From contig NC_087245.1 in NCBI RefSeq assembly GCF_037042905.1, positions 36,892,001 through 36,956,000 of the forward strand: a stretch of DNA of 64,000 nt, in the 5' to 3' direction. Shown here one piece after another: positions 10,401-62,300 of the stretch. The notes under the pieces were generated by a model that saw nothing but the letters and a program-made list of their open reading frames with translations, made no database searches and had not been told where the DNA came from. The stretch is from Lytechinus pictus. Taxonomy: Eukaryota. The translations under genes and the position numbers were made by a program. The first letter of the stretch is position 1; every line of letters begins with the position of its first letter.

Positions 10401-13400
10401 GCAAATGGACAAATTGGCATTGGACCAAATGAAAATAAACCATGGCAATTAAATAGCCCTTTTACATTTCAGGAAAGCCCAAGAAAATTACTTATGGGTT
10501 CAATACAAAGTCTGCTTCTGAAAGAAAAGAACCTAGCACCCCCCCCCTCCAAACTGGATCAAAAAGTCATAATGTTGAATTTTTTACTCCTTCCTAATTT
10601 CAAGATTCTGTGAATGAACAATAATTTGACCACAAAATGCAACAGCAATATAATCCCTAATGATTATGAAGATTTCAAAATAAAGTTTCTAACCAGAACA
10701 AATATTTATTCAACATCCCATATCATCCCATATCCAACCTCCATGTCCCCCAATACTCCTTTGTGATATGGAAAAATGGCAATCTAATTCAATTTTTAAT
10801 CAAAATGCTATGGAAATCCTTCTGAGAATCTTGTTTTAGAGTTACGAAAGAAAAAAACTAACTAAATGCACTCCTCAAGAACATTAAATAGAGTTAAAGA
10901 TAAATGCCAGTTGTGGTGATGATTTCAAAATGGGTTCGTACAGAATCCAATAAAATGACCACACTCGTCCCCCTATGTATGAATAACGTATGCCAAAGGA
11001 TTCTGCAAGCATGACAATAAGCAATAATAATACACTGTCCCACGTGTGCCAATATCTGTGATAGTGATCCTCAAGGTGGAAGTTTTTCAGCCTTGGATTT
11101 CATGATTTAACAGAGTTCGCTTTATGTATATGTACCAGATCTAAATCTATGATGATATATTGACAACGAACCTTGGTTTTACAGACTCTCTCATAAAATC
11201 AGTATTTATTGCAACTACAATCAAACCTTTCTATTAAGACCACAAAAGAAAAGCAGAAAAAAATTGGTCACTGTAGACAGATGGTCTATATAGACAGGTA
11301 CCATAACAGGCATTCCTTTCAAATGGGAGACAATATTAGTGGCCACTAAAGGCCCAGTCACATCGCTCCGTGCAAGCCTTGCGTGTGACCTGCAGGTAAC
11401 TGTTTTTGTTACCCGCAGGTCGGCCGCATTGACAGTATCTCTCACGCAACTCACACGCAAAAGTGCACGCAAGTCTGATTTGCGCGCAGACAAGTTTTGA
11501 ACATGCTCAAAACATTTTTTGTGGGTGAGTTGCAGTTAATCACGCGCAACTCACCCCCAAGGCTTATACAGAACGATGCGACAGAGCCTTTAGACAGGTT
11601 TAACTTATTTTCATTGATGTTTAACTTACCAACTCCCTCATTCCTGGAGTGTAGTAGCTCCGTGAGGGGTGCAGTGGCGCCCTCTTGCTCAATCATCTCG
11701 GCACCCTGTTTCTCCAAAGAAAGCTCCGACAACACACCTGCTGCCACACGCTGGATGTTCTCGATGTTGGAGTAAAGCAACTGTGGGTGAATAGAGTCAA
11801 GTTAGTCTTAAAAGTGAATGATAGTCACTAATTAATCAATTAATTAATAAAACAAAAACAAGGTGAAAGTTCTCATGTAGCCTGTTTTATGGAATAAATT
11901 TCCAAATTCCCTTAAAATGATTGATACAGTATCTAAAATTCAAAACAGCTCTTAAAACTTCTTAGTGAAAATGTACGTCAATTCAACAAAAAGAAATCAG
12001 TAAAAATCTTTATCTTTTCTGTATATTCTGAAGTGCATAGAGACACAAGTATAGCAATTAATGTTCACTCTGTTTCCTAAATCAATATTTAAGGCCTGAA
12101 AAAATGTGTTTTCTTGTGAATTTCGTCTTCCTGAATTCCAGGATTTTTTCCTGTTTTTTCGTATCACGGAAAACTGGGGACTCTAATCTTAATCAGTGAG
12201 TCACAAGAACGATCATCCTTTCTTGATAGCAAATCAATTCGCATAATAATGAAAGAGAAGTCGTTTACGAACAGGGCATGACGGCTCACTGGTAGAGCGC
12301 CCGTCTCATGAATGGAAGGTCATGGGTTCCATCCCCAGCCAAGTCATACCAAAGACTCATCAACATGGGACCTTCTGCCTTCTTGCTTGGCGCTCAGGAT
12401 TTAGATTATAGGAGGAGAATAACATTATGTTATGCAGGGCCAGCTGGAAGAGCAGTTTTATGACTGACGTGGCTACCCTGGGTAAATCAATTATTATAAT
12501 TATTATTATCATTATTTATTACCTGTACGAAGAGAGGGATACAGTTGAGACCCTGGATGAGGGCTCTGTTATGGGAGTCCCTGGCTAGGATGTGAAGTGC
12601 TCCAGTAGTACCTTCTACGATGTCCTCCATACGTACACCATCTGCATAATTACCACCCTGGCTACCAGTGCTACCCATCGAGGAACGCTGGAAACAAGTA
12701 GACAAAATGTTAATTATCATTCCATTTGTTGAAGTTTCTATAAATTTGTCATTCGTGTCATATTGGTTACTCCATGCACACATACACATACCAGATAGTA
12801 GTTAACGACAAAAATCCACTCACTTAACTACTTTGAGTAAGTAAAAATACAATTATTGTTAATAATTATCATTACTTTAAATTTTGAATTATTTTGAATT
12901 TGAATTGTTTTTATTGTAATTGTAATACCGGTGTGTTGGCTCAGTTGGTAGAGCGTCCGCCCCACAACCGGGAGAGCGGAAGTTCACGCCCCAGTCGCGT
13001 TAGACCAAAAGACGTTAAAAAATGGGAGTTGCTGCTGCCCTGTTTGGTGTTAAACAATGCAAGGAATAGAGCTATTTAGATCTGGCAGTGCACGGTGGCT
13101 GCTGGGCCCACAATCAATTGGGCAAAATAAATTTTCAGAGTATATTCTATATCAGATTTCTATTAGGAAGAAAATATGGACTTTATTTTTTTCAGATTTC
13201 AACAATTCCGCCATTGGTTGCGAAATTGAATAAGCCATTATCTTGAATCTTGAAGAGAGTGTAGACTTACCCTCTGTGTGTCTTGATGAGCTCTCATAAG
13301 AAGCTGAACCAATCTGTGTAGAGCACCTTGTTCTCTCAATGGGGCGTGGTTAGCAGGGCAGAGGGCTAGGTTACGAACCAATCCAACGGTGGCCTGGTGT

Positions 13401-25400: not shown

Positions 25401-26895
25401 TGTGGTAATAATATTATTCATAATGGTTCCCACAAAAGATAAGCCTTCCAGATTACAAAACAAACCAAAGGTCAAAATCTCCATTACATATCTTACATAC
25501 AAGCATATTTTTGTAAGATAAAACTTAACTTGTATAAATATCAAGTTAAAGGAAATCTGTTTAGACACCGTTATCACTGCCGTCCTAAAACTAGTTAACT
25601 GGAAACTACTTAAGTGGAAACTAGTTTAACATGTAATGAGAACGGTCGAAGCGATCTTCCGAACCAGTTCATAAAACCTCCTCGCGATGTAGTTTTTCCA
25701 GATCGCTTTGCGTCATTAAAATGGTTTTAGCATAAGTGAGGACACAACCGTTCTTCCGGAAGCAACATTCGCACATTTTTAGCGCGCTACTCCACACACT
25801 ACGTGTAGAATGCCTACGCTGCGGTTCCAAATTTCGCGCGAAACGAGTCAGCCCACTGAGAGCTTTCCCATAGCAACAAGGTCGCTTTACGTGAAGTGAT
25901 TTTCAAAACCACTTTCGGGTGATCAAGTGGGAATGCTAGCAAAGCGATCTTCCAAACTGGTGTCCTGAACCGAATTCCAGTAAACTAGTTTTAGAAAGTG
26001 TAATGAGAACGGGGTCAGAGTTTGACTTACATGTGAGGTGGCGCTGCTCTGAAATCCTGAATCCATACCATAGCCATGATGCTGCCATTCCATGGTATTC
26101 TGCATGGGGTCTTGCTTTGGCAGGTCTTGAAGCCCTGGACCGCCATACCCTTTCTGTTGTGGGTTCACAGGCTGTTGTTGGTTAGAGTACTGCAATAACA
26201 AAAACAACAAAGAAAAAAACCCATAAAATTACAAATATATGCAGATAAATTCCTGGGGAAAAAAAAGAGGAAGTCCCACATACTTATCTTATCACTATGT
26301 AACTACAGGTATAGTTGATTTAAGGACTGGAACCTAAGGAAATTTAATTCTGAAATTGGTTTAATTTGAATTCCAAAGTCTTTTGAAGATGTCTGATCCA
26401 CCTATCAATAAACCGACTGGCGAACATATGGGGGGAGGGCGTTGGAAGGCCATGGACCCACAAAATTTTCACAACCAAGAAAAACAAGAGAACAAAACGA
26501 AAGAAAAGGGGGGAAAAAGGGTGAAATATGATACTAGTTTGCAAAGAGTATGTCAAAATCTATAACAACATTTTATTTTTGTATCCAAGGCTGTATCAAA
26601 AGGTCAACAATTCTATACGCTAGTAGCTTTTTAAGAAATTACTGCCCCATACTTTTGCTCATTATGCTACTGAATGAACCCATCAATGGCTAAAACCAGG
26701 AAGGGTGAGATAAAAAGCATCACTGCATTGGTTCATAGGTCACATCACAATCAAGGGATGTGCCCTTCCACATATTCATTCCTGTACCACACACTCAATT
26801 ATATCAAGTGCACATGGGCTTTTTTTCAGAATATCTTCTTGTGAAACCACCCTCCTTGCAAATAAGTGATTCTCTCTTACCCTTGCCTGCTCCAT
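7315..26895 (-). CDS. CTNNB1: Beta-catenin (armadillo), complete spliced CDS, 16 coding exons, 821 aa
   Basis: All exons have GT-AG boundaries with matching phases and lengths sum to 2466 nt. Contains the DSGxxS degron, armadillo repeats ([39 protein letters not shown]), the KKRISVEL site and a C-terminal DTDL*. Confidence 0.97.
8085..8232 (-). CDS. CTNNB1: Beta-catenin coding exon 15
   Basis: [13 protein letters not shown]...[15 protein letters not shown] acceptor, GTAAGT donor; 148 nt, phases fit both neighbours. Confidence 0.9.
8547..9010. mobile_element. TIR element with a nested hairpin MITE (8764-8906, CAG TSD); related to 25566-26015
   Basis: ACCCAATTCTCATCTACTTTCTTAAACT ... AGTTCAAGAAAGTTGATGGGAATGGGGT imperfect TIR. 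Confidence 0.7.
9031..9490. mobile_element. Non-autonomous DNA transposon with 6-bp TSD
   Basis: TIR CAGAGCTGCCAAGT / ACTTGGCAGCTCTG; CTTTAG duplicated at 9025-9030 and 9491-9496. Confidence 0.9.
9520..9641 (-). CDS. CTNNB1: Beta-catenin coding exon 14
   Basis: [27 protein letters not shown]...VPWGD; 122 nt. Confidence 0.97.
10054..10441. mobile_element. Foldback-like element with many inverted sub-repeats, inserted into a duplicated intron segment
   Basis: TGGTCTA/TAGACCA, CCAACTCGT/ACGAGTTGG motifs; interrupts the second copy of the 9654-10010 segment. Confidence 0.7.
11216..11607. mobile_element. Tc1/mariner-like MITE with nested TIR element (about 11350-11589)
   Basis: TACAATCAAACCTTTCTA ... 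TAGACAGGTTTAACTTA ends; nested GGCCCAGTCACATCG...CGATGCGACAGAGCC. Confidence 0.65.
11630..11780 (-). CDS. CTNNB1: Beta-catenin coding exon 13
   Basis: [20 protein letters not shown]...[13 protein letters not shown]; 151 nt. Confidence 0.97.
12274..12487 (+). mobile_element. tRNA-derived SINE; degenerate relative at about 24283-24520
   Basis: A-box GGCTCACTGGTAGAGC, B-box GGGTTCCATCCC, non-tRNA body, AT-rich tail. Confidence 0.75.
12523..12687 (-). CDS. CTNNB1: Beta-catenin coding exon 12
   Basis: RSSMGS...[21 protein letters not shown]...CIPLFVQ; 165 nt. Confidence 0.97.
12928..13130 (+). mobile_element. tRNA-derived SINE
   Basis: TGGCTCAGTTGGTAGAGC A-box, AGTTCACGCCCC degenerate B-box, followed by a SINE body. 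Confidence 0.75.
13271..13393 (-). CDS. CTNNB1: Beta-catenin coding exon 11
   Basis: [24 protein letters not shown]...RAHQDTQR; 123 nt. Confidence 0.97.
13483..13634. mobile_element. Hairpin MITE; second copy at 36928-37104
   Basis: GTTTCGTAAAGCTGTTCGTAAG ... CTTACGAACAGCTTTATGAAAC; CWG flanks. Confidence 0.85.
14089..14220 (-). CDS. CTNNB1: Beta-catenin coding exon 10
   Basis: [11 protein letters not shown]...[13 protein letters not shown]; 132 nt. Confidence 0.97.
14662..14793. mobile_element. Hairpin MITE; related to 53420-53577
   Basis: GGCCCTGTTGCATAA ... TTATGCAAAATGGTCC. Confidence 0.65.
14906..15112 (-). CDS. CTNNB1: Beta-catenin coding exon 9
   Basis: [14 protein letters not shown]...[10 protein letters not shown]...[11 protein letters not shown]; 207 nt. 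Confidence 0.97.
15210..15374. repeat. (TTCA)n microsatellite ending in a short inverted (TGAA)n
   Basis: Directly visible. Confidence 0.95.
15732..15942. mobile_element. Hairpin MITE with CAG TSD
   Basis: About 48-bp near-perfect inverted arms; CAG at 15729-15731 and 15943-15945. Confidence 0.9.
16146..16249 (-). CDS. CTNNB1: Beta-catenin coding exon 8
   Basis: GMSALGLHL...[15 protein letters not shown]; 104 nt. Confidence 0.97.
16861..17005 (-). CDS. CTNNB1: Beta-catenin coding exon 7
   Basis: LIILASGGP...[18 protein letters not shown]...KPAIVEA; 145 nt. Confidence 0.97.
17070..17194. repeat. Palindrome with about 43-bp arms and a G/C-rich loop
   Basis: AAATAACTGATAAAGAATCACCCC..CACTGGCTGATCA / TGATCAGCCAGTG..GGGGTGATTCTTTATCAGTTATTT. 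Confidence 0.9.
20281..20482 (-). CDS. CTNNB1: Beta-catenin coding exon 6
   Basis: [38 protein letters not shown]...AYGNQESK; 202 nt. Confidence 0.97.
21003..21241 (-). CDS. CTNNB1: Beta-catenin coding exon 5
   Basis: [24 protein letters not shown]...[10 protein letters not shown]; 239 nt. Confidence 0.97.
21923..22633. mobile_element. Truncated piggyBac-like non-autonomous element
   Basis: Right end AGGGTTAA, GATTCAACCCCCC repeats, CpG-rich ends. Confidence 0.55.
22776..23029 (-). CDS. CTNNB1: Beta-catenin coding exon 4
   Basis: [21 protein letters not shown]...[16 protein letters not shown]; 254 nt. Confidence 0.97.
23639..23756 (-). CDS. CTNNB1: Beta-catenin coding exon 3
   Basis: APSVSSK...YTQEQVD; CAG acceptor, GTGAGT donor; 118 nt. 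Confidence 0.95.
24576..25173. mobile_element. Kolobok-like TTAA MITE; inverted copy at 61092-61695, degenerate relative at about 17282-17769
   Basis: TTAA|AGGACAA...TTGACCT ends, long imperfect TIRs (TTTCATCAAAATCGGATG/CATCCGATTTT). Confidence 0.8.
25566..26015. mobile_element. TIR element ending about 15 bp from the donor of the degron exon
   Basis: CCGTTATCAC..TAAAACTAGTT / AACTAGTTTTA..TAATGAGAACGG; internal similarity to 8547-9010. Confidence 0.7.
26031..26189 (-). CDS. CTNNB1: Beta-catenin coding exon 2 (contains DSGFQS degron)
   Basis: YSNQQQP...[18 protein letters not shown] acceptor, GTAAGT donor; 159 nt. Confidence 0.95.
26881..26895 (-). CDS. CTNNB1: Beta-catenin coding exon 1 (MEQAR); whole exon with 5' UTR is 26881-26934
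   Basis: TTTCAG acceptor at 26935, Kozak-like ACCATGG, AGG|GTAAGA donor; phase 0 fits the next exon. Confidence 0.8.
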
Positions 26896-29071
26896 GGTGT
26901 ATAACTTTCTCCTTCAATCTCCGTCAACGAAACTCTGAAAGTAATAAAAAACACAAAGATAATAAGGAAATGATCAAAGTATATACATGTATGCAGACGG
27001 AAAATCAGCACGTACAGTAGGCCTATATGATCTGTACATGTACATTATGAATGAAATAAGTTTCTTTTTGAAAAAAATGGGAGCAAAAACAAACCACTAA
27101 TTATCAGAGATGCCACTAAACATTGGTAATACTGGAAATCACCCAAATGTGTTTTCTATGGCTGAAAATGCACTGAAAAGTCTGAAATCAGACTAGTATA
27201 GTCAGAAAAGTGGCATCCCTTAGCAGCAGTCTTTCAGAGTTTTTTTTTAAACATGTAAGATGCTTTTGGTACAATGTACAAGTACAGGTACAACATACAA
27301 TTAAAATGAATAAAGTTACTAACATGGTTACAGTACAGCATTGAAGAAAAGGAATGCTTGAGTCAGTATCAGAGGTGAATTTTAATTGATGGATACATAC
27401 AACGTGCACAAAGCCTGTATAAAGTACGCCCTACAGCTTACACAATATCATGTGCAAAGAAAAGAAAACAGTCATGTGTGCACTATCATCAGTGTTTGTA
27501 AATGTCCAGTGTGTACACAAGCTATAAAGGGCTTCTCAATACTCCCCATGAGAACAACAAAATAGGCTCAGATCTTCTATGAAAGGTACAAACCACTGAA
27601 TGCCTATATTGTGAGCCTTTCAATGTAGCCCTCCTATTGTTCAGATGACTCACACTGCATATCTCAAGACATAAAGTACACACTACCATGGCTTATCTAT
27701 TCTCCACCCATAGTCCGTATTGCTGCGCATGCATAAGGTATGTAATGTATGTACAGAGTACATGTAAATGTACATGAGTACAGTCAAACCTCAGCAAAAT
27801 GATCTTCCTACATGTACATGTCATTTGGAGATGTGCTAATGTATGCACTCATTCAACCACACAATGTCCCTATTCTGTTAAATACAAATCAGAGTTAATG
27901 AGGCAAGAGCTGACATACATGTATGGTCATTGTACCACTCAAAGGGTTACCATACTTGTAGTTCACTTAGAGCAAATATCGGCAATCAAAATTCAGATAT
28001 TCATATAATAAAGTTCTGACTTTTTACTGCTTTGATCGCAAGTATTACATTTTTGTCTCACATCTGCTGTGCAGGCAAGACACAAATTATTGGAGTACAC
28101 TACAGGTACGTAGTAAGGAGGAGGCCAACATGTAAACCTACAAGTATGCTGTGTACATGTACATGAGTCATTCACATTGCATCATTTATGGATGATAAAA
28201 ACATTTAACAAAGAGATTATCATAGGCACAAGAAATGTATTTGTCAAATGAAGCTACATGTAGGTGTAGCCTAGGCCTATGCACATAACATTGTAAATGT
28301 AAACTATTACAGAAAATGGCAAAATTTTCAAAGAAGATCTACATTTACCAATTTCTGAAAGCATCTAATAACCATTTTAATTTGATTTTTTTTTGTATAT
28401 ACCGGTAAGCAAACTTTATATTCTGAGATGAATCAGGCTTGAATGAAAATACTGGACAAGTTTGTACTTCCCATTTTTCCAGTATGCCAGTGAATAATGG
28501 ACTCAGGGTTTTTATTTTTATTTCTTTTCATGGATGAGATATTCTAACGATTGACAGACAGTGGCATGAACTTTTGACATTTGCATAGGAAAACAATGTG
28601 TAAATTCACAGAGGTGGATGAATATGCTAAACAAATCAAAAGTGTATTCTACTACGACATTATGTTCAGTAGTAAATATTTCATTGGGGGATGGTAGATA
28701 GTGACTCGTGGAGATTTTTAAAAAAATGATTGCAATTACTATGCTTGTAAGTAAACAACCAGAGGACAAATTATGGCTTACAAGTAAACAACCAGAGGAC
28801 AACTTATGGCTTACATGTAAAGGAGAATGACAGCCCCAAAATAAATCAAACTTGCATGAAAATAGACAAAGTTTTGAGCATTTGAATGTTTAAATCACAG
28901 ATGCTATGTATGGGGATGCTCCCATTGTCGATGTGACCAAGATTTGTGATGTCACTGAAGTACATCTCTCCCCTTTGTACACTGAAATATACCTCAAAAT
29001 ATTGGTCCGTGACAGATTTCATGAAAATTACCCTCTATTTCAAGTCCTCCACTGAAAAAAAAACACCTCTG

Positions 29072-29223
29072 GGGGGCCCGTCTTACAAAGATTTGTGATT
29101 GATCCGACCAATCGCAACTATGGAAAGCCAGCAAAGTCAACATATAAAATGCATGTTTGTTCAAAAGAGTTCCAAAGAGTTACGATTGATTGGATCAATC
29201 GTAAGTCTTTGTAAGACGGGGCC
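29072..29223. mobile_element. Hairpin MITE with CTG TSD
   Basis: CCCGTCTTACAAAGA..GATTGATCC / GGATCAATC..TCTTTGTAAGACGGG. Confidence 0.85.
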
Positions 29224-30322
29224 CTGGTCTCTGGATAGACTTGATAAATGTGACAATATAAGTAAAATATGTAGAAAAGTAATTTGGGAGTTGTCCAAGT
29301 AGGACATTTCATATTTTTGGTCGCATTGCCAATGGGAATATGTCTAAATCATTATTAAATTAGTGATCTCAACATACATGTAAAATGTTCATAACTTTCT
29401 TGTTCTTCTCCGAACCACAAGATTTTACCCAAGTTTTGCCATAATATAATGTTACCATGCCAACACATTGGAACACAATTTCGGAAACAAGTGAAAAGGG
29501 GAGTTTCGCACATCTTTACCCCAAGACCTACATGTAAGTGTGTTCCAAATTTCATGAGAATTGGTTAAAAACTAAATTAGGAATTCAAACGGAAATATTT
29601 GCAATGAACCGATAGAACACTAATTAGCCTATACCCCCTTCAAACTTTTTTTGGCAGGGTGTGTATGTACAGGTCATATGATTTCCATGTTGTTAATGAA
29701 GTCATATTTGCCTCTGTACACAATGTACATGAACTCTTAAACATGTTATGTAGCTGTATATTTGGTCTGCGAACCAATCAATACAGACAGACATGCATTA
29801 ATGAAATGCTGGCGTCATTAATTAGACCTGTCATCTGGCACATTACAGGCTCATGACAGACTACTCCCCTGTCCATGCTAATTATGTGACAGAGATACAA
29901 ATAGTCTCATCAATCACGCTCTTAAATATAACCTGATGAATCTTCACCACATATAACTATCAAGGATGGTACTTAGGCATACATGTACTGCATGCCCCAC
30001 ACGTATTGTGTAATTTGATCTGTTCAATTGTTCATCATAATTACTGTGATGACAATTTGAGCAATGATTGGCAGTCTGGGGAGATTTCATGAAAACAAAT
30101 AGTGATTTTCACTGTATATTATTGTAAGCTACTGCAATCCTTGTATCTGTTTGGCTCAGAGCAAAATTGTCAGTGAAGATCGACAAATTCCATGTACATG
30201 TAACACTACACATGATACAACTGTATTGGGTAATACATTGCCATTTCAGTTGTTTATATGACTATGGAGGGCCTACATCTTAGGCCTACAATGTACATCA
30301 CTAATTGAAGCAATGGCTTTAA

Positions 30323-31056
30323 CCCTCTAGCACCTACAGATTCCTATGCATAATGGCAATTACTCACTGGAGGAAACAATAAAACTGGTAATAAGTAGGC
30401 ATTGTTCCAAACAAATTGAAATATTTTTTTATAAATTTACTTTTGTTCATTACAAGTTATATTTATTTTTTAGCATAGGACCTGTTGAATAGAATGGTAC
30501 ATGGCAAAGTTCAATCAGATATACGAATATTGACCTTTGGCAATCGTTTGCAGAGCGAGAAGAAAAAAAAAACAAAAGTTCGGGTTTCAGCCGCCCCAGT
30601 CCCACGCCTTCAAAAAAATGTAAAGTATCACTGACAGAATACTAAAGTTTTCGCCAGATCTTGAATCAAATATGTCAAATATTAATTCCAACACACATCT
30701 AGATGTCACTCTGTGTGATATCCAACGTTTTGATGAACATATAGCAAGGCCCGAGCTTCTTCGGCGAAGTAAGTGGTTTTCCGAGACATGGACGCAGCCA
30801 TCTTTGCTGATATCGACTGCGCAACAGTCTGGAACTTGCTACACACCGATGCATGTCAATCGGTTTTTCTCTATTATACTCAATAGGAGCATACACTTTT
30901 CTATGCAGATCTATGTAGCAGCCAACCTATACGATATGCACACGCAATATTACCACGGTAAATCATAGACAAGAGATACTATAGCGCAAAGAAAACGTAC
31001 GGGCGGTTCAGTGTGTAATAGGAAGGGCGGTCTCGGGCGGTTCAGGTGCTAAAGGG
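30323..31056. mobile_element. piggyBac-like MITE
   Basis: TTAA|CCCTCTAGCACCT ... AGGTGCTAAAGGG|TTAA; subterminal GGGCGGT repeats. Confidence 0.85.
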
Positions 31057-31286
31057 TTAAAAAGAAAAAAAAATGTATTGCAAAGAGGCTATTGTGTAAT
31101 ATACAGGTGTTCATGCATTGAGTACATGTACATGTAGGCCTACTGTACATGTATATGATGAAATGCAACATGTAAGAAGAAACCTGAAATATACACATGT
31201 TAACACTCTACATGTGTTTACATATGTAGGACATGCACAGATATTGTTCACCTAGTAATACATGTAGTACGTTACATGTCACTCAG

Positions 31287-31423
31287 GGGAGCGTTTCATG
31301 AAAATGTTTTGTCCGACAAGTCCTGTTTTATCCGACAGTTACAGTGCCTCTCATCCAATCAAAATCAAGGAAAGTTGTCAGATCTGACAACTTGTCAGAC
31401 AAAAATGTTGATGAAATGCTCTC
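31287..31423. mobile_element. Hairpin MITE, CWG flanks
   Basis: GGAGCGTTTCAT..TTGTCCGACAAG / CTTGTCAGACAA..ATGAAATGCTCT. Confidence 0.8.
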
Positions 31424-32128
31424 CTGGTCTACAAGTTTTGATACAGATTTACCTGTACAAGTACACATTAATTTTATCCTATATGTACATGCAACACTGC
31501 AAAATCCAATGGGCTTCAAGCGGTAGACTACATGGGCAAGCATGACATCTTACAGGCAGTCTGGGCTAGGATTTGATTGACATTGCCATGGTGCAATGGA
31601 ATGTGAAAGTCAGGGCACTGGGGTGTAACTGTTCAGAAGCTTTTCTCCAATGGCACCACACCAGTTGACATGAATGTCACAAGAGTGAAGAGATCAGTGG
31701 GCCTACATGTTCAGCTCAATCACGATTCCACTTTCAGAATAAATGCTTGGCCTAGAATTAAGCACTAGTAGCACATGTATTGACAATAATTCAGAATAAA
31801 TAAAACAATATGGCATCCCCCCTGGAAAATACATAATAATAAATATATAAAATGAAAATATGAATTACAAAGTACATGTACATGTAGTTTAAATAAAAAT
31901 TAAAGTAAGAATTTCAAAGAGAGTCAATCTCCTTCCCAGCTGTAAAAAGAAACTAGACATTCATAAGAAACTGATTAAAATCCACAGTAATGCGTGCTGG
32001 TGTACTGATGTACAACCCATTTTAGCATATTCCACACAGACAAAGATGGAAGTTTGATTGAAACAGACTACATGTACATGTCACTGTCTGGGCAAGTACT
32101 AGTGATCATCTGAGAAAATTTGACAGGA

Positions 32129-32604
32129 GGTGGTTTCAAACCGCCTCGATCACAAGAATCCCCGTTAAATTACGAGAACTTTTTTAGGCTGAAAAATACC
32201 CATTAATTATTCCTGCATTCACACCGCCCTGAAACATACCCTTCGGGATAAGTTCCTGAAGTTACGAGCATGCGCAGTATGGTCTGATAAGCAGCAAGGC
32301 GCGAAATTCAAAATCACTAGCCCAGGAGCAACCCATGCACGGCGCCGCACCCAACGACACGCTGGGCTAAAAGTTCCCGTAATTTGCTTTCAGACCGCCA
32401 AAATACCCACGACCTTGGAAAAATCCCCGCGAAAGTTCTCGTAATTTCGCCAAGTACCTACTATTTATCGGGTATTTTCTTTCGGGGATATTACGCGTAG
32501 TTTGCTTTCACACCGCCAAAATACCTGGTATTTTCTGATCGGGGTAAATTTCCCGATCAGAGAATACCTGGAACTGGCGAACTTCGAGGCGGTCTGAAAC
32601 CACC
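32129..32604. mobile_element. CpG-rich TIR element (Harbinger-like)
   Basis: GGTGGTTTCAAACCGCCTCGA / TCGAGGCGGTCTGAAACCACC; internal TTCACACCGCC repeats. Confidence 0.8.
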
Positions 32605-35499
32605 CAGGGTCATCTTACTCACATACTAGATATTCCATGCTGACGTTTGGCTTGAACTTCTCACCCACAATGCTTACAGTACTTCGTTATCACTGTCTCT
32701 TATTTTGAAATGTAAGCCACAAATGTTTCTCATCTTTTTAGCATTGTGTTTTTCATGCGCATACATGTACATGTATACATGTAGGGGGGGGGGGCATCAA
32801 TTTCACTTCAACATTAAAGAAACAAAAAAGGAATATAATAGCCTAAAGGCTAAATACCTCTCATTTTGTGTATTTCATTTACATGTAGGCTTAATCATAT
32901 TTTAAACATTTTTTTTCATGCAAATCTAAACCAGGAAAATATTGAAATTTGCATCTGTTGTTCTTATTAGGGCCAATGCTATAGGCCTACATGTACTTGT
33001 TGCCACTAACCACTCATGATGAATTTCATTTGATACTGTAGGCCTACAAGCAACATGTATGTATGTGAATACATGTAAGCCTCATGTACATCACATTTTT
33101 GTTGAAGACAATTAGACCTCCATCTACATGTTAATAGATAGGGACAGAGATTTACCGCGATCGCGGAAAACGAACCAAATTCACGGAAAAGACCTTTTCA
33201 AACAAAAAGTGGCTTTTCAAATGGAAAATCATGGAAAACATATTTTTTCTCAAAATGCACAGAACAGTGCAAATAAATTACTCCAAAATCTCAACACAAT
33301 ATGAATATTAACTGGCCACAAAACCCCATAAAATTGAAAACGATCTCACTTCGCTACAATCACCACAATCCACACATCGTGACTGTTTTCGACTCCAACG
33401 TATACCCCTCGCCCCAGCCCCCGCCGGACGGCCTGGGCCGTATCGAAAACATTCACATAAATGCGCACATTGTTTGATTATAACCAACATATACATGTAG
33501 AAGGCAGCAATACGGCTGTATGTTGCTGCTCTCTAAGTTCGGTAACAGAACAATATCTCTTGAAATCCAAAATGGCTTTTAGGCGAAAATCATTGACTGC
33601 TCAAAACGATGTCAAAAAAAATCCCCAAATTATATATTAATAAAATTTAATTCAACTGCAAAATAATGCTAATAATGTGAAAGGTAATGTTAAATGTGTT
33701 TGTCAAAATATTTTGTGCACCTGTATAGGTATGATAAGATTCTAATGCGTTAGTACAGTGGCAGATACAAATTTTGACCAGCACGAGTGTTGTGACATCG
33801 CTACTCAATGCGTATTGACGTTCTATGTAAATGGAATTATCACTTTTTCATGTATACAAAGTCTATGGGGGAACAGCATTTCCGTTTTCAAACATGCTGA
33901 AAGAAACGGAATGTAAGAATTTCTGAAACGAACAAGGCCATTTTTGAAACGGAAAATCACTGACCCTACATGTACATGTAGGCCTAGATAAAAACAAATG
34001 ACATAAAATTGAATCACACTGCCATTTAAAAATTCAATGCATAACTGCATCATAGGCCTACATTTTTTTATGCATCTCTATTAGTAAGAGCAAACAGTCA
34101 ATCCTGCATGTACTCTGATATGTATATTGCATGATCATGAATCCATTAAACAAATATATCGGGCTTTGAGAAAGTATAGTGGAATTATTTATCCGAGGTT
34201 GGTCTGGCAATTACTATTTTTTCCCGAGGGGCGAAGCCCCGAGGGAAATATAGTAGTTTTGCCAGTCCAACCGAGGATTAATATTCCCACTATGCTTTCG
34301 AATGAAACGCCTGATATATTTGCTTTATATCCTACTTTTAATAATTTATAACCAAAATCTATGCGCTGAGCATGCAAAGTCCTGTTGAATTACCTACTTT
34401 TTTCCGAGCCACCGCGCCCAGCGGAACGCAGATTAGTGTCTGCGCTGACGCATCGCGCTGGACTTGCGCGCCCGGGAGAGAGAGAGCGCGCAAGCCGGTG
34501 CGCCGAGATATCCAGTTTTGTGAAATAATGACGTCAGAATATTGGTATATCCAAAAATATATCGAGGTCTGACGTCACGCAACATCATAGTTGAAATATA
34601 TTCGGTCACATGATGCTACTTGAACCAATCACTATACAGGATTTACTCTATGTAGGATATAAATTCATTTGTAACCCACATCAATCTCAGCACTCAGCAT
34701 CATTATGCTCATGCGAAATGCACTTGGAAGTCCTACAGAAACAAACAAAGTGCATCCTCTCCAATTGCCAGTGCAATAGTGCATGTGTGTGAAGGAGGCA
34801 AGGGTGTTGAGATAAACAGCAGGTCCATGTACATACTGTACACCCTCCTATCTCCCATGACACACACTCTGTATTTGGCATTCCACTGGAATGAATACCA
34901 ATGCTATACAAACACACAAAGCCACTGCTACTCCCACACACAGAGAAGCCACAATAAACATAGTCTTCCATTGAATAAATATTCAGACATAAAGTTGTTC
35001 ATTATTTAAGGGCTTCGAGTTTCTACATGTGGACCTACATCTTATAGGTCTCACACTTTATACAGTCACATCCACTGTGCACACTACAGGCCGACCTAAA
35101 TGTAGTTTATTGTATTTTCCCGGTATTCTATATATTCACAAATAAAAATGCAACAAATAACAACAGATGACTGAATAATAGACTACAATTATAAAAACCC
35201 ATTTACTCTGCTTGCTCACCTATTGGGTGCACAGCAAGTCATTTACCCATTTCCATGAAGGAGAAAATCTTCACTCTAGTCTTTGCCTTGTTGTACAAGA
35301 TTACCGGAAGTGCATTCCAATTACATATGACTTATTGTATGCGACAAGAGCAATATGATTCTATCCAGTGTCATATAGTAATTGATACAGAGGACAAACT
35401 TTCCTAATCCTTTAATTCAAAATGTGCCCAATCTGACGATGAAACAAAATAACAAGGTGGTTCACTAGTATCACCCGATTTCGCGATCAATGAAATATG

Positions 35500-36020
35500 C
35501 AATATGATCTTTTGACCCCTAGATGACATTTGAGCTTATCATGCTCATTAGAATGCATGTGGTATTACCCCCCCCCCTATTACCCAATTATTATTTGTAC
35601 CAAGTGTAAACAAAATTGATGCAGAAATAAAGAAAGTTGAACAAAATCTTGAAAATTAAAGGATACACATACATGTACCATTTGACCTTTTGACCACTAG
35701 ATGACCTTTGACCCTCATGATCCCCATCATTCTAATAAGCTCACATGTGGTGTTACCCAAGGTTCATGTGTTATACATATAAGTATGAACATGATTGATG
35801 CATAAATAAAGAAATGAGAGCAAGTTGAACAAACACTTGAAAATACAAGGATAGACATATCATAACGTTTAACCTTTTGACCACTAGATGACCTTTGATT
35901 TTGACCCCCATTTTTCTCATGGGCTCACATGTGGTATTACCCAAGGTTCATACATGCATGTACCAAGTATGAACATGATTGATGCACAAATAAAGAAATG
36001 ACAGCAAGTTGAACAAAAAC
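35500..36020. repeat. Three-copy tandem repeat, period about 180 bp
   Basis: TTTTGACC.CTAGATGAC...ATGTGGT.TTACCC...TTGATGCA.AAATAAAGAAA...GTTGAACAAA at about 35511, 35688 and 35875. Confidence 0.9.
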
Positions 36021-36764
36021 TGCTTGTTTAAGTTTTTCCAAGGAAAGATCAAGGGCACTTCAATATCGTTATCATACAAGATCAAGTACTGGTATTTTTT
36101 TTTCTCAAGTTTTACCATATATTCATTACCAAAGGCCTAACCTAATGTTAGCCTAACCCCTACAGCAAAGAATGAATTTAAATTTACGGCTAGTACTAAG
36201 CCTAAATTGTTTACCTTGACAGCCAATCACGGCTCGCCATTCAGCGTACATTGTCTATTTCGGTTCTATTACATATTGTTTTGCTCTAGCGTTTTAGTCA
36301 TTTCATGCGATTTTACTCTGATGCGTGCATGTCGAAAAGCTTCAGTATGTCCGTTTTGAAGGCTATATTACGATTTTGCGGTACCAAACACTTATTTAAA
36401 GAATGAATTGAAACAAGAAACTGAAGAGGGTATGGATTAACAGTTGGACACAAGATGTGGGTGCTTCCAACGAGACACATGTACATGTCCGTCTATTCTA
36501 TATCAAGGTCTCAAAAAGCCTTTACGAGTTGGCCATAATTTTAGACATCTCTGAGACTGACATTATAACCAAACGTATCCATGTACCTCATTCAACAGGA
36601 AAAATTAAGAAATATGGATGTTTCTTTCTACTTTTTAACAGATTTAAAGCTAAATGAAAGAAGTTGCAGAAAACGCTCATTTCATGAGTAAGTGTAAAAC
36701 CAGGCCATATCATACATGTACATGTACCATATCAATCATCCTACACATGTAGATACATGTACTG

Positions 36765-36920
36765 GGGCCCCGTTTCATAAAGACTTGCAACTGTTGTAAC
36801 TTTGCCATTATGGCAACTACCATGGAAACTTTGATTCTGATTGGCTGCTGAGCCATGTTACCATGGTAGTTGCCATTATGGCAAAGTTACAACAGTTGCA
36901 AGTCCTTTATGAAATGGCCC
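36765..36920. mobile_element. Near-perfect hairpin MITE
   Basis: About 60-bp arms TTTCATAAAGACTTGCAACTGTTGTAACTTTGCCAT..CCATGG; CTG/CAG flanks. Confidence 0.9.
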
Positions 36921-38395
36921 CAGATCGGGTGGGTGTTTCATAAAGCTGTTCCTGAGTTAAGAGCGACTTTAAAAACGACTGGTGATCTTTTTTTGTTGTA
37001 AATGGTAAATTTAATGAATTGGCGATGGTTTAGTGCGTAAGAAAGGTTCACCAGTAGTTCTTAAAGTCCCTCTCAACTTACGAACAGCTTTATGAAACGG
37101 CCTCCTGGTACATTTATATAAGCTGAACTTTGTGAAATCACGAAATTGAAGCTGAAAATAATCACACTGAAGTTCGCCAACACAGATGAGTACACATGGA
37201 AAGACCCGACAATTTGGTGAAATGTCATTCTTATTTTGCAGCAATTACACAATTTCTTAAGAATCCTTTGGCACCTAATTTTTTATTCAGTACAAAAAGA
37301 CACTTGGGTGGTCATTTTATAGGATTCTGTACCAACTCATTTTGAAATGGTTACAACTGGCATCTTTAAATCCATACTCAGCTACATGTACATGTAGAGC
37401 TAGGGAAGATCTATGAAGCAATTGGTGCACAGGACAACACAGAAAATACACCAGGGCGATGGGTGGATTCGCTCTCTGGATAGCAAAAAAAAAATGCCCA
37501 TAAATTTCCCCAAATTGAATGTTTGGGTGATAGTCTTTTCTAAAGTCACCCCAAGATCTGCTCAAAGCAATCTAAGAAAGTTAAGAAATCAATTTTATAA
37601 AATACAGCACACTGCTTTTTACAGCATAGTTGCTTGTCTAAGTATATGTATGTAGCCCTTGAAATGAAAGAAATAGCCTTGAAAAATTCAGCAATCATCT
37701 CCAATGTGGGGGAAAATGGCCCCTAAAAATAAAAATTATTTCCAACCCTGGGACACAAGCTTGTCGAAGAGCAATTAAAAACATTATCAACAGCTCCAAA
37801 ACCAATTAACATGAAGCCAATCTTTACATTATATGTGCAGACCCACTACAGAGCAAAAATCTAAAGTGTTTTTGTTCCTACGCAAGTGTAAAAACTAATC
37901 AATTTTTAAAGGTACAACTAATAATTGATAATTTATTGCACGGGCCGTGCGCAATTCGAGTTCGCCATTTTGGATTTGACGGTGAATTAATATGTGTGGT
38001 GTACTGCGAACCGGCTTCATATCACTGATTTTGAGACGTTTACAAGAAAGGGCAAGGAATGAGTCTGTGTCCGATAGTAAGTTTAGACACTGTAGAGTAT
38101 GCTTAATGTCTCTTTTTTACATGACGTGTTGCCTTTTTCTATTTATCGCCCAATGGTTCGGGTAGCCTAGCTAGGTCAGGTGTAGCGGAGGCCGGAGGGT
38201 TAGTGAATAGTGGAGTCTAAAGTTACACAGTACACATATCAGTGAGGTAGGCCTACTAGGTTTTGGCGTGGTTGAAGCCCGAGAGGGGGGGAGGGGGCAC
38301 TCACAAATAATGGTGGTACGGGGATGTGCCCCTTTGATGACCCCCTTTTTCAGACCCAATTTTCAATTCTCTAGACTCCAAATGACAAAAGTTCA

Positions 38396-40402: not shown

Positions 40403-42756
40403 ACAGGGGCGGATCTAGCCTTCGCCAATGGGGAGGGGGCGGATTTATTTTTCCAGCCATATCCGGCCAAACGGCCGCTCGAAGTTGATTTTTGTTTCTT
40501 TCTTAGCGGCTTCTTAGCTTTATTCTTATAACATAAATATATGATTATCTCATAATCTAAATATTGCGATCACGAGGCGCGAGCTTAACTTTTTTTAATT
40601 TTATGTATATCTTGTTGTAAAATTTGAACATTTTGGGCAATGTTTGTGATCCTGAACAAGATGTGTATGCAACTGCGAGCGCGAAGCCCGAGCAGAAATT
40701 TCGAAAAGGGACCTGTACAGTTAATGCTAAGTTGCAATCAGGCCTTAACAGTATTAAGGCCTGCTTGCAGTTAGCCATGAAGACGTTACATAATTCAACA
40801 ATCAAATAATGCGAGCGCGAGCTGAACATTTTTGACAGTAAGCTTTGTAATCATGAACAGGATAGCTATGATGAGAGCGCGAATTAAGCGCGATCGAGCG
40901 GAAAATTTTTGATATTCTGATCTGAAACTGGAAAATTATTTAAATATATAAAAAGCTGCGTATCTCAATAGCATGCATACGCGTGTTTCAGATTTAGACC
41001 TAGAATCTCGGCACTCTAAATACACTTTTTCCCATGAAAATCAACAAAGCGAGCGCGAAGCGCAAGCTTAAAATAGGGCCTATTTTATACTCCGATCTGA
41101 AAAAAAAAATCAATTTAAGCTCTATATTTCAAGCACTTCGTAGGAAAATTGTGAGGTGGATATGGATCGCACTTAATAAAGAGCTGATACTTTTCATTAT
41201 TATTTCTTTGAGTTTGACATAATTAGGACCGGGACATTCTAAGGACATTTCGTCATAGCATATGAAAATGATGACTATCTTCCTATTTCTCTTTCTAAGC
41301 GCGAGATGAAACTTGTCGATAGGCCTATTCCATTCTGAAAAAAGGGACAATTTAATTATGACTGGATTAAAATCTTATTTTTTTATCTCAATGATTTAAT
41401 AAGCCTTATTAGAGCGCGAAATCTGTTATGGCCTGAAAACTGAACATATAAATGGATGGTCCAGGCTGGACATATTTATATCTCAATAAAGAGAGTCATT
41501 CACAGAGCAAAATGCTGAAAATTTGATCAAAATCGGATAACAAATTAAAGATTTCTGGTGAAACAGTTCTAGGCGTGTCTTTATGAATATTCATTAGGTG
41601 GGCAGATGATGTCATATCCCGACTTGTTCTTTTGTATTTTATTGTATGAAATTAGGTTTATTCAAAATTATTCTACCAACAACTAAAACTTTACTTACTT
41701 TACTTTATACTTTTATCCAACGATGCTTGTAGGACTATGCCTGATCATCGGATTGACAACTGATTGAGTGCATTAGGTATTTATTGCCGCAACTTATTTC
41801 ATTATAATGGAGACACATCATTTACACATGTATGAAATGAAACATTTATGATTTCATGTAATAACATAAAAAAGAAAAAAGGTGGAAATGTGACATCATC
41901 AGCCCAACTAATGAGTATTCATGCATGATATGCATATAACTGTTTTCATAAAATGTTGATAAACTTTAAAATTCAATAACTTCGTTATTTGCTATCCGAT
42001 TTTGATGAAATTTTCAGCATTTTGCTATGTGTATTTTACTATATTCATTTAGATATAAATATTTTCAGCCCGGACCATCCCTTCAAGCATTTTTGTAGTT
42101 ATGTATAAGATGCATGAGTTGATATATTTTTAACAATTAATGCGAGCCGAAGTTTTTGATAAACTGTCATGAAATGGGGATTTTAAGTAGTTGGTTATAA
42201 AATTAATAGCCTATTGAGATATATACATCACTCACCAATCAAAATACAGCGTGCAGCGCTAGCTGATACGTTTTGACAATCATACCTGAATAGGGATATT
42301 TTGAGAACTTTATGGAATACACGAAAATAATAAGTACCTCACAAATAATAAGTGCCTCGTAACGCGAGCAGAAAATTTTACTATTTAGACCATAAAAATG
42401 ACATTTTTACAGAGCACTTAAAAAAAATCAATTTGTAAATCAAACAAAATAATGAAAGTTCGATTTCCGAACTGAAATATGTTTTGTAAATTGATTTCAA
42501 AACTTGATATCTTAAGCTCGATAATGAGCAAGATATGCAAATCACCTAATTGGCAATGCGAGCGCGAAGTGCGAACGAAAATTTTGTAGAGTGACATGAA
42601 AGATTTTTTTTCTTCCAAGTCTTCCGCTCATCTGATTTTATTCACTCGTATTCCTCCTCTTATTTTTCCTCTTCTTTTTTCTCCTCTCTTTTCCCTTCTT
42701 TACTACTTTTCTTTCTTACCCTTTTTTGCTCCGCCAATGGGGGGGGGGGGGGGGGC
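40403..42756. mobile_element. Repeat with periodic GCGAGCGCGAAGC motifs, interrupted by a Kolobok-like MITE (41452-42082)
   Basis: CAGGGGCGGATC start; about 10 GCGAGCGCG variants; nested GGATGGTCC..GGACCATCC element (deleted copy at 59752-59930). Confidence 0.6.
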
Positions 42757-45014: not shown

Positions 45015-45111
45015 GTAGTAGAAGTAGTAGTAATAATAGTAGGGTAGTAGTATTATATTAGTAGTAGTAGTAGTAGTAGTAGTAGTAGCAGCAGGAGAAG
45101 AAGAAGTATAC

Positions 45112-45149
<38 letters not shown>

Positions 45150-45170
45150 TATAGTAGTAGCAGTAGTAGC

Positions 45171-45202
<32 letters not shown>

Positions 45203-45350
45203 CAGTAGTAGTAGTAGTATTAGTAGCAGTAGTAGTAGTAGCAGTAGTAGTAGCAGTAGTAGTAGTAGTATTAGTAGTAGTAGTAGTAGCTAGTAGTAGT
45301 AGTAGTAGTAATAGCAGTAGTAGTAGTATTGTAGAAGAAGAAGAAGTAGA
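44957..45350. repeat. (TAG)n microsatellite
   Basis: Directly visible. Confidence 0.97.
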
Positions 45351-47236: not shown

Positions 47237-47268
<32 letters not shown>

Positions 47269-47641
47269 TCACAACCGCCACAATCATCACCACCACTATC
47301 ATCATAATCGTCATCCTTCTCATCATCACCATCATCATCATCTCCATCATTATCATTAGCATCATTATTATCATCGTCATCATCATCACTTATTATCATC
47401 ATCATCACCACCAGCATATCATCATCATCGTCATCACAACCGCTACAATCATCACCACCACCAACATCATAATCGTCATCATCATCATCATCATCATCAT
47501 CATCAAGATTCATGGTGTTCCGTTAAAACTACTACACTATTCTTCTTCGCCATGGAAACCTTCAGAAGTTACATCATCATCGTCATCATCATCATTATCA
47601 TCACCACCACCATCACAACCACCACCACCAGCATCATCATC
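46296..47641. repeat. Degenerate (CAT)n/(CAC)n array with higher-order structure
   Basis: Directly visible; variant blocks recur. Confidence 0.97.
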
Positions 47642-48367: not shown

Positions 48368-48716
<349 letters not shown>

Positions 48717-59380: not shown

Positions 59381-62300
59381 GTAGGTTTATCATACTAAAA
59401 TTAAACTTGCCTTCGGAATGAGTCAGTTTTCTTTGTTTGTTATGTTTTATTATTGCTTCCTTATGTATGCCATTAACATTTAAAAGAAATTTGTGAATAA
59501 TGAATCCAAGAAACATAAGCATAAACAAAATTGAATTATAGGGCCTGAATTAAAGAAGTGATGTGGCTCAGTGGATAAGTCTGCGCACTTTGAACTACAA
59601 GGTCCGGGGCGAGGTGTTTGTCTACATTTGCCACTCTCCACCCAGGTGTAGTAGATGGGTACCCGGTAGGAAGGAATTGCTTGAATGCTCGAGCACCTGA
59701 TCAGACCATGGACCTATCACATGATCAGACTAGCTGGAAACATTGTATTAAAGGGATGGTCCAGGCTGGAGATATTTCTGTCAAAAAATAGAGTAAAATA
59801 TTGATAAACTTTGAAATTCAATAACTTCGTTATTTGTTATCCGATTTTGATGAAATTTTCAGCCTTTTGCTTTGTGAATTTTACTCTATTTATTTAGATT
59901 GAATATTTTCAACCCGGACCATGCATCCCTTTAAGCTATATATAAATGTTGCATATTATCTTTTATAGGCTGTACACGTTGATTTATGTTTGTTTTCTTT
60001 TGTGCAGTTTCAGGACGCTATCTTACGGATACTACACCTATCAACCTTACATCACCAAATTATCCGAATCACTATCCGAACAACTTGAACTTTGCATATC
60101 ACATAACTGTGCCGGACGGATGTCGGATATTGGCCAAATTCCATTTTCTAAGCCTTGAAAGCAACAGCGATTTCCTGTCATTTGGAGATGGTATTGGGAG
60201 AGAACTTATCCGACTAACCGGGAGGTATTCGCCCCCGACTATTCTTTCTCCGGCTAACGTAATGTGGATGAATTTCACAAGTGACGCCAGTAGTTCGGAT
60301 ATCGGATTTCAGTTTGAAATTTCTCTGTATAACAAATCAGGTATATCCCCAGTCGCAGCCGACCTCTACACTGTAAAAAATATTGGGTGAAATTTTCACC
60401 ACCACAAGGGTAATCATTTGTCCAACCAATTTGGGGCAGTATTTTACCCAATGCGGGAAGCATATTTTCCAGTAAAGTTGAAATATATATAAGCAGCGAT
60501 TCTTTAGAATGGGCAAAACTTTCATCACACTGCATAAATAAAAATGCCCAAAAGAAATACCCCATGTTGGTTGGACACATAATTACCCTCATGGAACACT
60601 TTTACCCAATATTTTTCTTTAGTGTATATATATTTTTTCCTTTCTCTCTCATTATGTTTTCTCCAAGTTTATCTTCAAAATAGAAAGTATTCTCAAATTA
60701 AATAATGTAACACTTTTTTTATCGCACAATCAACCAAGAGAGTCTTGATATAAAATAATATTGTGATTAGAGTGTCTGTCAGGATAATGGTTATAAAAAA
60801 TCCAAGAGGAATGAGAGGGGCGGATCCAGGATTTTCCAAAGGGGGGGGGGGCACATTTTTCCAAGGAAAATTTTACAAGCCCCCCAAAAAGGATCTTCAC
60901 TTTCAAAGGGGGGGGGGGGACATTTGTGTTTTAACGGCATTTTTTATATTACAAATTTTAATTGTGCCTCTCAAATAGGGGGACACGGGCCGGCTGTGCC
61001 CCCTCCCCCTGGATCCGCCAGTGGTTACTTTATAATTATCAAGGAAATCATATAGCATATTAATTATATGAATTAATGAAAGTATTGTTAAAGGTCAAGT
61101 CCACACCAAAAAAAATGTTGATTTGAGTAAATAGAGATAAATCAAACTATCATAATGCTGAAAATTTCATCAAAATCGGGTGTAAAATAAGAAAGTTATG
61201 ACATTTTTAAGTTCCACTTATTTTTCACAAAACAGTGATATGCACAACTCAGTTGCATGCAAATGAGACAGTCGATGGTGTCTCTCACTCACTATTTCTT
61301 TTGTTTTTTATTGTTTGAATTATACAATATTTCATTTTTAACAGATTCGACAATAAGGATCAACTTGACAGATCCATATAGTATTAATCAATGTTAATTT
61401 CACATGTTCAGGGCGGAATAAATCGTTGTTTCACTTGACAACGAGGAGAAAAGTAGAATCTTTCATATTTCACATAATAAAATACAAAAGAAATAGTGAG
61501 TGGATGACGTCATCAGTCTGCTCATTTGCATACCGACCACGATGTGCATATAACTGTTTTGTGAAATTTAGCGAAACTTTGAAATATCATAACTTTCTTA
61601 TTTTTCATCCGATTTTGTTGAAATTTTCAATGTTAGGTTTGTTAGATTTTTCTCTTTTAATTCAAATCAACTTTTTGTTGGGGTGGACTTGTCCTTTAAT
61701 GACCATTTATCTCTTCTCCCTACTATGGGCTAATTGTATTCATTAATATTCTTAATGCCTGGCAGTCACGGTGGCGTACGCAGGGGGGGGGTTACAGGGG
61801 TTCAAACTCCCTTAAATTTGTTTGATACCCACCCCCCCCCCCAGAATTCAACCCCCCAAAAAAATTGAAGACTTTTTTTTTTTTGGGGGGGGGGGGGTTG
61901 TCAACATTTCATTCAGCTTGAACCCCCTTTTAAAAATCATGCGTATGCTACTGATGCCTATAATTTCTTCCTTTATGGGGGGGGGGGGGGCTTATGCATA
62001 TATATATGTTTTTTCTTTTTTGTTTGTTTTAAAGCCCTACTTAGCAAAAGCCTCTAATATTCTTTTTCATTTCATTTTAAACAAAAACACCGGATAAAAC
62101 ATCCTTTTAGAACAGTTTTCCAAACTAAAAATCGAATGAAATATACTACAGCACTCAAACAGATTAATAATGAATGCAGGGGACGCAGAACTGATGGGGG
62201 TGGCTTATGGGGCTTCTACCCCCACCCTTTCCAGTAAACATGTACAAAACCTACAATTTCAAAACCGTTCCACGACCCGTGCTTTATTATTTCTTTTACT

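Follow-up and report, generated by a model that had tools for sequence, protein, structure and literature searches.

A field of TA-bounded palindromes in a 5' intron of sea urchin beta-catenin: probable excision footprints of TA-targeting transposons

Results

The window analysed here is a 64,000-nucleotide (nt) stretch of the sea urchin Lytechinus pictus (NC_087245.1) that carries the beta-catenin gene on its minus strand, and the feature in question is a dense field of short palindromes bounded by TA dinucleotides, chiefly TACATGTA and TAGGCCTA, in the region 26,980-37,400. One exon of the gene matches a named sea-urchin catenin beta at 100% identity. RNA reads (104) cross the joint from 26,189 to 26,881, which spans a 691-nt intron. 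The exon that ends at 26,881 has a polypyrimidine acceptor upstream of it near 26,937 and encodes MEQAR, the N-terminus of the sea-urchin homologue, which indicates that the field lies in a 5'-untranslated region (5'-UTR) intron of this gene. It begins 48 base pairs (bp) from the acceptor and stops at 37,396. An earlier note, made from the letters alone, had placed the field in beta-catenin intron 1; the gene is confirmed, the MEQAR exon and the RNA joint put the field in a 5'-UTR intron, and the number of the intron is likely. An upstream exon was not located, as no joint to one is among the 15 of 1,006 RNA joints listed. RNA depth at 37,492-38,300 is low (1-2.7), and two GCCATTTTG words, which we take to be YY1-like, stand at 37,964 and 39,054.

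The window contains 39 copies of TACATGTA, of which 34 lie in the region (3.26/kb) and 5 are spread over the rest (53.6 kb; 0.09/kb), so that the impression by eye of more than 20 copies between about 27.0 and 37.4 kb and sporadic ones elsewhere was right, and the example coordinates given with it are correct to within 2 bp. Counting against a Markov background, as had been suggested, yields local expectations of 0.46, 1.77 and 4.07 under Markov-1, Markov-2 and Markov-3, and ranks TACATGTA first among the region's 8-mers by over-representation (Poisson p 1.6e-31 against Markov-2). Second among its TA-NNNN-TA words comes TAGGCCTA, with 8 copies against a Markov-2 expectation of 0.1, 6 chain junctions with other units, and 6 more copies elsewhere in the window. 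The third word that had been said to co-occur, TAC(A/T)GTA, is not locally enriched (6 in the region against a Markov-2 expectation of 4.3), and three of these six sit within chains. The downstream beta-catenin gene body holds 5 copies of TACATGTA in 20 kb. Genome-wide, 224,046 copies are found in 811.7 Mb (0.28/kb), a mean that the intron exceeds about 12-fold.

Words of this class arise, genome-wide, as 6-bp insertions at an ancestral single TA. Paralogous repeats supply the ancestral state, and motif sites and donors were examined in ~1.03 Mb (0.13% of the genome). In one high-copy repeat, a particular TA stands empty in 18,145 copies, while 43 others have 2-12 nt added there: 11 CATGTA, 3 CTAGTA, 1 GGCCTA, 2 CTGTACATGTA (a single locus that two near-identical contigs share), 3 TA, one each of CAGTA, CTGTA and CGTA, and 20 others that include several local duplications. 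Fifteen of the 16 six-nt inserts consist of a palindromic filler plus TA. The 11 copies that carry CATGTA resemble one another at 65-91% where aligned and sit at different units of the repeat array, and so represent separate events; elsewhere, the same TA was struck in three copies of one repeat.

A broader comparison covered 560 motif sites in the ~1.03 Mb, 47 of which have at least three paralogues; 14 sites that had been chosen because of their insertion do not count among them. Other rows left out of the analysis are the window copies L001 and L031, the tandem or overlapping L043-L046 and L056, and the near-duplicates L148 and L151. Eighteen of the 47 exceed the modal paralogue by exactly 6 bp for each unit (support being weak for 2), 7 are equal in length and thus substitutions, and 22 fall elsewhere, about 10 of these being, by eye, a +6 insertion plus a neighbouring indel. 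Target-site duplications (TSDs) also polarise the event: in a MITE family (miniature inverted-repeat transposable elements) with hAT-like features, CATGTA separates the terminal TA from one of the TSD copies in two (L006, L009) of the 28 copies whose two ends were recovered. The earlier note had proposed testing whether the units are insertions at an ancestral single TA, and these comparisons answer in its favour.

Two near-identical contigs, C9 and C27, which are haplotypes or a recent duplicate, differ in the presence of such words. Over 6.6 kb they show 6,523 matches and 51 substitutions, and 2 of their 12 internal indels are of footprint type (+6 CATGTA and +7 CACTGTA); no element polymorphism was seen in this stretch. 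The unplaced contig C27 (679-686 kb) is ~99% identical to the start of C9 (492-499 kb), a probable haplotig. Among reads aligned over 25,900-38,300 of the window (4 of 23 listed runs), indels in the 12 of 251 rows listed fall mostly in paralogous repeats, and at 32.6-33.2 kb two contigs carry 39-40 gap letters.

The units are joined into chains through common TAs (Table 1). The three-unit chain next to the TAGGG...CCCTA MITE lies between this element and what is probably the right copy of its target site (equal to the left copy in 4 of 6 letters), and as the family has a 6-bp TSD the chain was probably added after the MITE had landed. Further doubles stand at 31,873, 36,713 and 37,383. Across the genome the mixed chain TACATGTAGGCCTA has 2,421 copies compared to 7 for the reversed control, and after the TA that ends TACATGTA comes CATGTA in 5.6% of cases, the share for any TA being 0.55%; at hot loci the two values are 10.5% and 3.0%. 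A solitary end that we take to be pogo-like, without a partner end, stands amid the footprint words and is a possible remnant of imprecise excision.

The vocabulary comprises several words. Over 75 stretches, fillers between TAs exceed the Markov-3 expectation 14-fold for GGCC, 9.2-fold for CATG, 6.3-fold for CCGG, 2.9-fold for GATC and 2.7-fold for CTAG, and four of the five have TA as their leading palindromic flank. The word TATATATA is 4.2-fold enriched, but confounded with microsatellites, and the 9-mers TAGGCCCTA and TACACTGTA are enriched 10-fold and 3.2-fold. Across loci TAC(A/T)GTA co-varies with TACATGTA (rho 0.44).

Density is patchy. Forty evenly spaced 10-kb stretches give a mean of 2.98 TACATGTA with variance 16.4 and a maximum of 24, and 3 of 75 other 10-kb loci carry 24-45. 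One of these, L115 (C14:1,876,211-1,886,210), lies at a Cdc42-like gene and has 45 copies in 10 kb, and L109, at an M-Ras/R-Ras-like gene, has 28 (both names by eye), each with 13-14 TAC(A/T)GTA. Twenty Ras-family genes, the first 20 of a list of N-terminal matches and sampled around the first coding exon, have a mean of 7.7, a median of 2.5 and a tail of 45, 28, 17, 12, 11 and 9; their median hardly departs from that of random stretches (2; p = 0.07), and 87 copies lie upstream and 67 downstream of the first coding exon. The rule that 5' introns of housekeeping genes are hot is therefore unsupported in general, and the hot zone that the earlier note saw in the 5' intron of this gene has many counterparts in the genome, with no tie to 5' introns. 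Fifteen homeobox loci average 0.67 per 10 kb (p = 2e-5 against Ras, 0.002 against random). Across 75 loci the density of TACATGTA falls as the observed/expected ratio of CpG rises (CpG o/e; rho -0.53), that of TAGGCCTA having the opposite sign (rho +0.31). All 8 loci with at least 9 TACATGTA have CpG o/e below 0.6, and yet the 28 CpG-poor loci have a median of only 3; hot zones thus make up a subset of CpG-poor gene bodies, with no general tie to first introns, and these hot bodies are probably transcribed in the germ line. Taking CpG depletion to stand for gene-body methylation in the germ line rests on established invertebrate biology (PMC11292947).

TA-flanked elements with CAG/CAC...CTG/GTG and CCG/CCC...CGG/GGG ends are present, which speaks for their existence only and links none of them to individual scars, and the CATG and CCGG fillers equal the terminal bases of TA-flanked elements in the genome. 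Both TA-flanked elements that had been located in the window were found, a TA-CAC...GTG-TA element at 60,369-60,624 and one with decayed pogo-like ends at 11,216-11,607. Candidate elements with CT...AG ends are single copies in the ~1.03 Mb, and no convincing GG- or GA-ended family with a TA TSD was found there. As to the suggestion that TAGGCCTA is the footprint of a GG...CC-ended element, a 6-bp insertion of this type does occur, but the donor did not turn up in the ~1.03 Mb. A scan for elements beginning directly at a scar gave none that was convincing, most rows being a microsatellite.

An intact, high-copy DD34E Tc1 family with CACTAC ends (450 end matches; 150 of 150 scored hits without stops and mostly of equal score) was considered as the main source and rejected. 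Scars have T 40, C 28, G 17 and A 15 at +1 and T 45 at +3 against a background of 33%, whereas T stands beside TA in 91 of 100 listed CACTAC ends (by eye), a preference unlike that of the scars. This Tc1 family is young, with ~30-bp inverted repeats, a 364-amino-acid open frame and at least 150 near-identical intact copies (e.g. L065:2226-4121, C2 near 15.0 Mb), and many copies have two opposed transposase matches between one end pair (e.g. C1:5,457,167-5,460,091). Pogo-like ends come nearer to the scars, with T 53, C 27, A 14 and G 6 at +1 among 100 listed, in a noisy pattern in which chance may account for about a quarter of the matches (141 of 513 in the control); 2 of the 100 listed lie directly on TACATG.TA. 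The TAGGG...CCCTA MITE family (~800 bp; window 33,139-33,968 and L002-L030), which we take to be hAT6-like, was rejected as the source of TAGGCCTA: because its 6-bp TSD lies outside the TA, it is a target of the scars, its terminal TAs being targets of CATGTA insertion. ISL2EU was rejected as its TSD is AT (PMC4482050).

The window also holds short hairpin MITEs at 29,068-29,228, 36,762-37,109 and 31,284-31,424 that have CWG triplet flanks, by eye, as NuwaI elements do (PMC4482050). Open frames at 59,983-60,390 and 62,195-62,659 (+) resemble, by eye, CUB-domain and SRCR-domain exons of a neighbouring gene. At 45,050-48,750 there are long tracts of trinucleotide microsatellites (TAC/TAG, CAT/GAT) that run in opposite orientations.

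Table 1. Features of the window by position (a point stands for no strand)
Feature	Position	Strand	Remark
TA-flanked MITE with decayed ends, taken by us to be pogo-like	11216..11607	.	downstream intron
691-nt intron after the start-codon exon	26190..26880	-	zero footprint words
beta-catenin start-codon exon (MEQAR)	26881..26936	-	lower boundary of the field; end at 26,936 deduced from the sequence and the 56-nt read side
field of 34 TACATGTA and 8 TAGGCCTA units	26984..37396	.	5'-UTR intron of beta-catenin
chain TA.CAG.TA.GGCC.TA	27013..27025	.	
solitary end TA-CAGTCAAACCTC, presumably pogo-like	27779..27792	+	no partner end; amid footprint words
five-unit mixed chain TA.CATG.TA.CATG.TA.GGCC.TA.CTG.TA.CATG.TA	31123..31153	.	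most striking chain
double TACATGTACATGTA, then directly another TACATGTA	32762..32783	.	
chain TA.GGCC.TA.CATG.TA	32982..32995	.	
chain TA.CTG.TA.GGCC.TA	33034..33046	.	
TAGGG...CCCTA MITE	33139..33968	.	other copies have a 6-bp TSD outside the TA
three-unit chain TA.CATG.TA.CATG.TA.GGCC.TA	33967..33986	.	begins at the terminal TA of the hAT-like MITE
TAGGCCTA inside a repeat with a single TA in paralogues	41320..41327	.	cleanest polarised +6 insertion of the window
TA-flanked CAC...GTG MITE (TA-CAC...GTG-TA)	60367..60626	.	possible donor type for CATG fillers

Discussion

We propose that the units are excision footprints of several TA-targeting families of the Tc1, mariner and pogo type in which both 2-nt overhangs were kept, a reading that we consider probable. 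Each unit would be the scar of one cycle of insertion and excision of a TA-targeting cut-and-paste element (of the IS630-Tc1-mariner type, pogo-like MITEs included). Insertion would duplicate the TA, the transposase would then cut 2 nt inside each end to leave non-complementary 2-nt overhangs (CA/CA, GG/GG, CC/CC or CT/CT), and end joining that retains and fills both overhangs would leave TA, XY, its reverse complement and TA, a net gain of 6 bp. A TA duplication around a palindromic filler is what is expected if a TA element with inverted ends was excised and both 2-nt overhangs were kept. As such overhangs cannot pair, a fill-in of the Pol mu/lambda type would retain all four overhang bases; worms, to our knowledge, are without a polymerase family of this type. 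A 3-nt stagger would give TAC(A/T)GTA and a 3+2 cut the +7 words such as TACACTGTA. Staggered cuts of 2 nt are described for Tc1, Tc3 and mariner and of 3 nt for Sleeping Beauty (10.1101/659086), and empty sites in worm soma are made by non-homologous end joining (PMC13148408).

The two TAs of a scar, standing in a favoured context, could be reused by the same or another family, and chains would grow. Scars favour a pyrimidine at +1 and T at +3, and CATGTA itself matches this preference, which would explain the re-use. The events would take place in the germ line, be inherited and accumulate in some CpG-poor gene bodies, the beta-catenin intron included. The insertions at single TAs, the chains linked by TAs and the existence of CA...TG elements agree with the notion, put forward in the earlier note, of a fossil record of cut-and-paste events; since no site with an element in one allele and a scar in the other was seen, excision is a step that we infer, as we do the transposon intermediate, the repair route and the cause of the patchiness.

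Several observations weigh against this proposal. The insertion origin is less cleanly supported for the intron's own copies: among those in repeats, 29,375 is +5, 33,492 is +4 compared to its subfamily and 35,670 is unclear, while the paralogues of 29,529 differ by two single bases; moreover, the 7 substitutions among the 47 testable sites had another origin. No GG...CC donor appears in the ~1.03 Mb although TAGGCCTA is the most enriched word, the T preference of the CACTAC Tc1 is unlike that of the scars, and the missing pair of element and scar alleles counts here as well. The +6 word had been presented as a footprint of Tc1/mariner elements, and in this respect the urchin departs from the usual laboratory scars of Tc1, Tc3 and Sleeping Beauty. 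In worms a +4 scar follows 78% of somatic Tc1 excisions (PMC13148408), whereas +6 dominates in the urchin. The commonest footprints of Tc3 are TACATA and TATGTA, yet TACATA is not enriched over the 75 stretches (1.0-fold) and none of the 43 inserts at the tested TA is CATA or TGTA, so that the +4 products prevailing in the Tc1/Tc3 laboratory spectrum do not prevail there. Likewise TACATGTA, dominant in the urchin, is absent from eight Sleeping Beauty footprints (10.1101/659086).

Some of these points would fit a different origin, in which the six-letter units are written without a full transposon intermediate, for example by a transposase or nuclease, domesticated or orphan, that cuts at TA, with fixed palindromic fillers put in during repair, or by capture of tiny fragments of transposon ends. 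The missing GG-ended donor, the ~224,000 TACATGTA set against a few hundred copies of the active CACTAC Tc1, the dissimilar target preference of this family and a product more uniform than laboratory footprints all speak for such a process. However, TA duplication and palindromic fillers equal to known element ends (CA, CC, CT) are predicted by staggered end cleavage, as are the accompanying TATA, TACGTA, TAC(A/T)GTA and 3+2 words, several of which are listed Sleeping Beauty products (10.1101/659086). A mismatch with present-day donors is to be expected because scars outlast their donors. We regard an origin without a transposon intermediate as unlikely.

It is very improbable that the field is a selected cluster of transcription-factor sites regulating beta-catenin, for an Irx homeodomain that binds TACATGTA or for BEN-domain binders of CATG. 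The cluster does sit in a 5' intron of a regulatory gene, and TACATGTA has been cited as a preferred Irx site and an abundant Phytophthora promoter motif (PMC3520976), but the words are inserted midway into unrelated, neutral repeats, differ in presence between C9 and C27, chain with GGCC and CTG units with which they have only TA in common, and are rarer at homeobox loci than at random. Some copies may have been co-opted later as binding sites. Slippage of a self-complementary (TACATG)n microsatellite is less credible still. Doubles in tandem are common (25 of 445 TACATGTA occurrences), some of which may be slippage, and the overlapping word ATGTACAT is frequent (85,448 in the genome), but single units stand at TAs without a nearby CATG template, and slippage cannot yield mixed chains of different fillers, which refutes it for both kinds of unit. 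The decay of CpG in TACGCGTA, or ordinary substitution in methylated DNA, has almost no chance and is refuted as the main source, for although density rises as CpG o/e falls and one of the 7 substitutions came from TACACGTA, decay predicts CATG, CACA+TGTG and TGCA at 1:2:1 where 119:28:18 was observed in 400 kb and 34:1:1 in the intron, and it can produce neither length changes nor, as the earlier note had remarked, TAGGCCTA.

Excision by TA-targeting elements, the explanation that we prefer, has its nearest parallel in Tc1 and Tc3 of Caenorhabditis elegans, which share with the urchin words a TA target, CA...TG ends, a 2-nt stagger and a scar of end bases between two TAs. There taCATGta has been described as a rare product of Tc1 excision (PMC3520976, citing Eide and Anderson 1988), and homologous repair restores most breaks in the germ line (PMC13148408), unlike the ~2 x 10^5 inherited +6 scars of the urchin. 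Sleeping Beauty leaves TACAGTA, TACTGTA and six minor forms (10.1101/659086), and the tested urchin TA likewise has CAGTA, CTGTA, CGTA and TA inserts; the GGCC, CCGG and CTAG fillers, in contrast, require other element ends. In rice, as here, excisions were read by comparing related sequences and DNA transposons gave rise to small indels, yet 8 of 94 excisions were clean and most had deletions or filler (PMC4423477), whereas in the urchin one exact product recurs and stacks.

The same word, TACATGTA, is the very abundant promoter motif-1 of Phytophthora, of which doubled copies have been tabulated (PMC3520976, PMC11134190). Its authors rejected a footprint origin and held TACATGTA to be a transcription-factor site, naming Irx as a binder (PMC3520976). 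By analogy, the urchin result weakens the dismissal, on grounds of abundance, of a footprint origin for the Phytophthora word. A full-text literature search, whose coverage left subscription journals mostly outside, gave no report of genome-scale fixed scar fields of TACATGTA or TAGGCCTA in an animal. Excision footprints as a kind are already known; new are the scale, the uniform +6 product, the vocabulary of several families, the stacking and the patchiness linked to chromatin.

We tentatively put forward a wider idea, which we hold to be possible though short of an even chance. The TA-filler-TA words would be a germ-line mutational signature, some 2 x 10^5 inherited records of transposase breaks, in which the fillers name the donor ends, a GG-ended family among them. 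Their density would map where germ-line chromatin was hit and where end joining kept the overhangs, CATG marking CpG-poor gene bodies and GGCC CpG-rich DNA, and scars would re-attract elements to build stacked fields in a subset of broadly expressed genes such as beta-catenin and the Cdc42-like gene.

Excisions of DNA transposons are thought to be hard to read from genomes as they leave variable damage. Since one exact product dominates here, past cut-and-paste activity becomes countable, assignable to end types and mappable. The counts suggest that excision is a large and regionally biased source of small insertions in the urchin, and two questions become testable, one on the germ-line chromatin that takes the hits and one on the route of repair. 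No function for beta-catenin itself follows from the field, and caution is due in invertebrate motif scans, where abundant TA-bounded palindromes are not necessarily regulatory sites. If the wider idea also holds in oomycetes and in invertebrates at large, part of the abundant palindromic 'promoter motifs' would be scars, or scars co-opted as binding sites.

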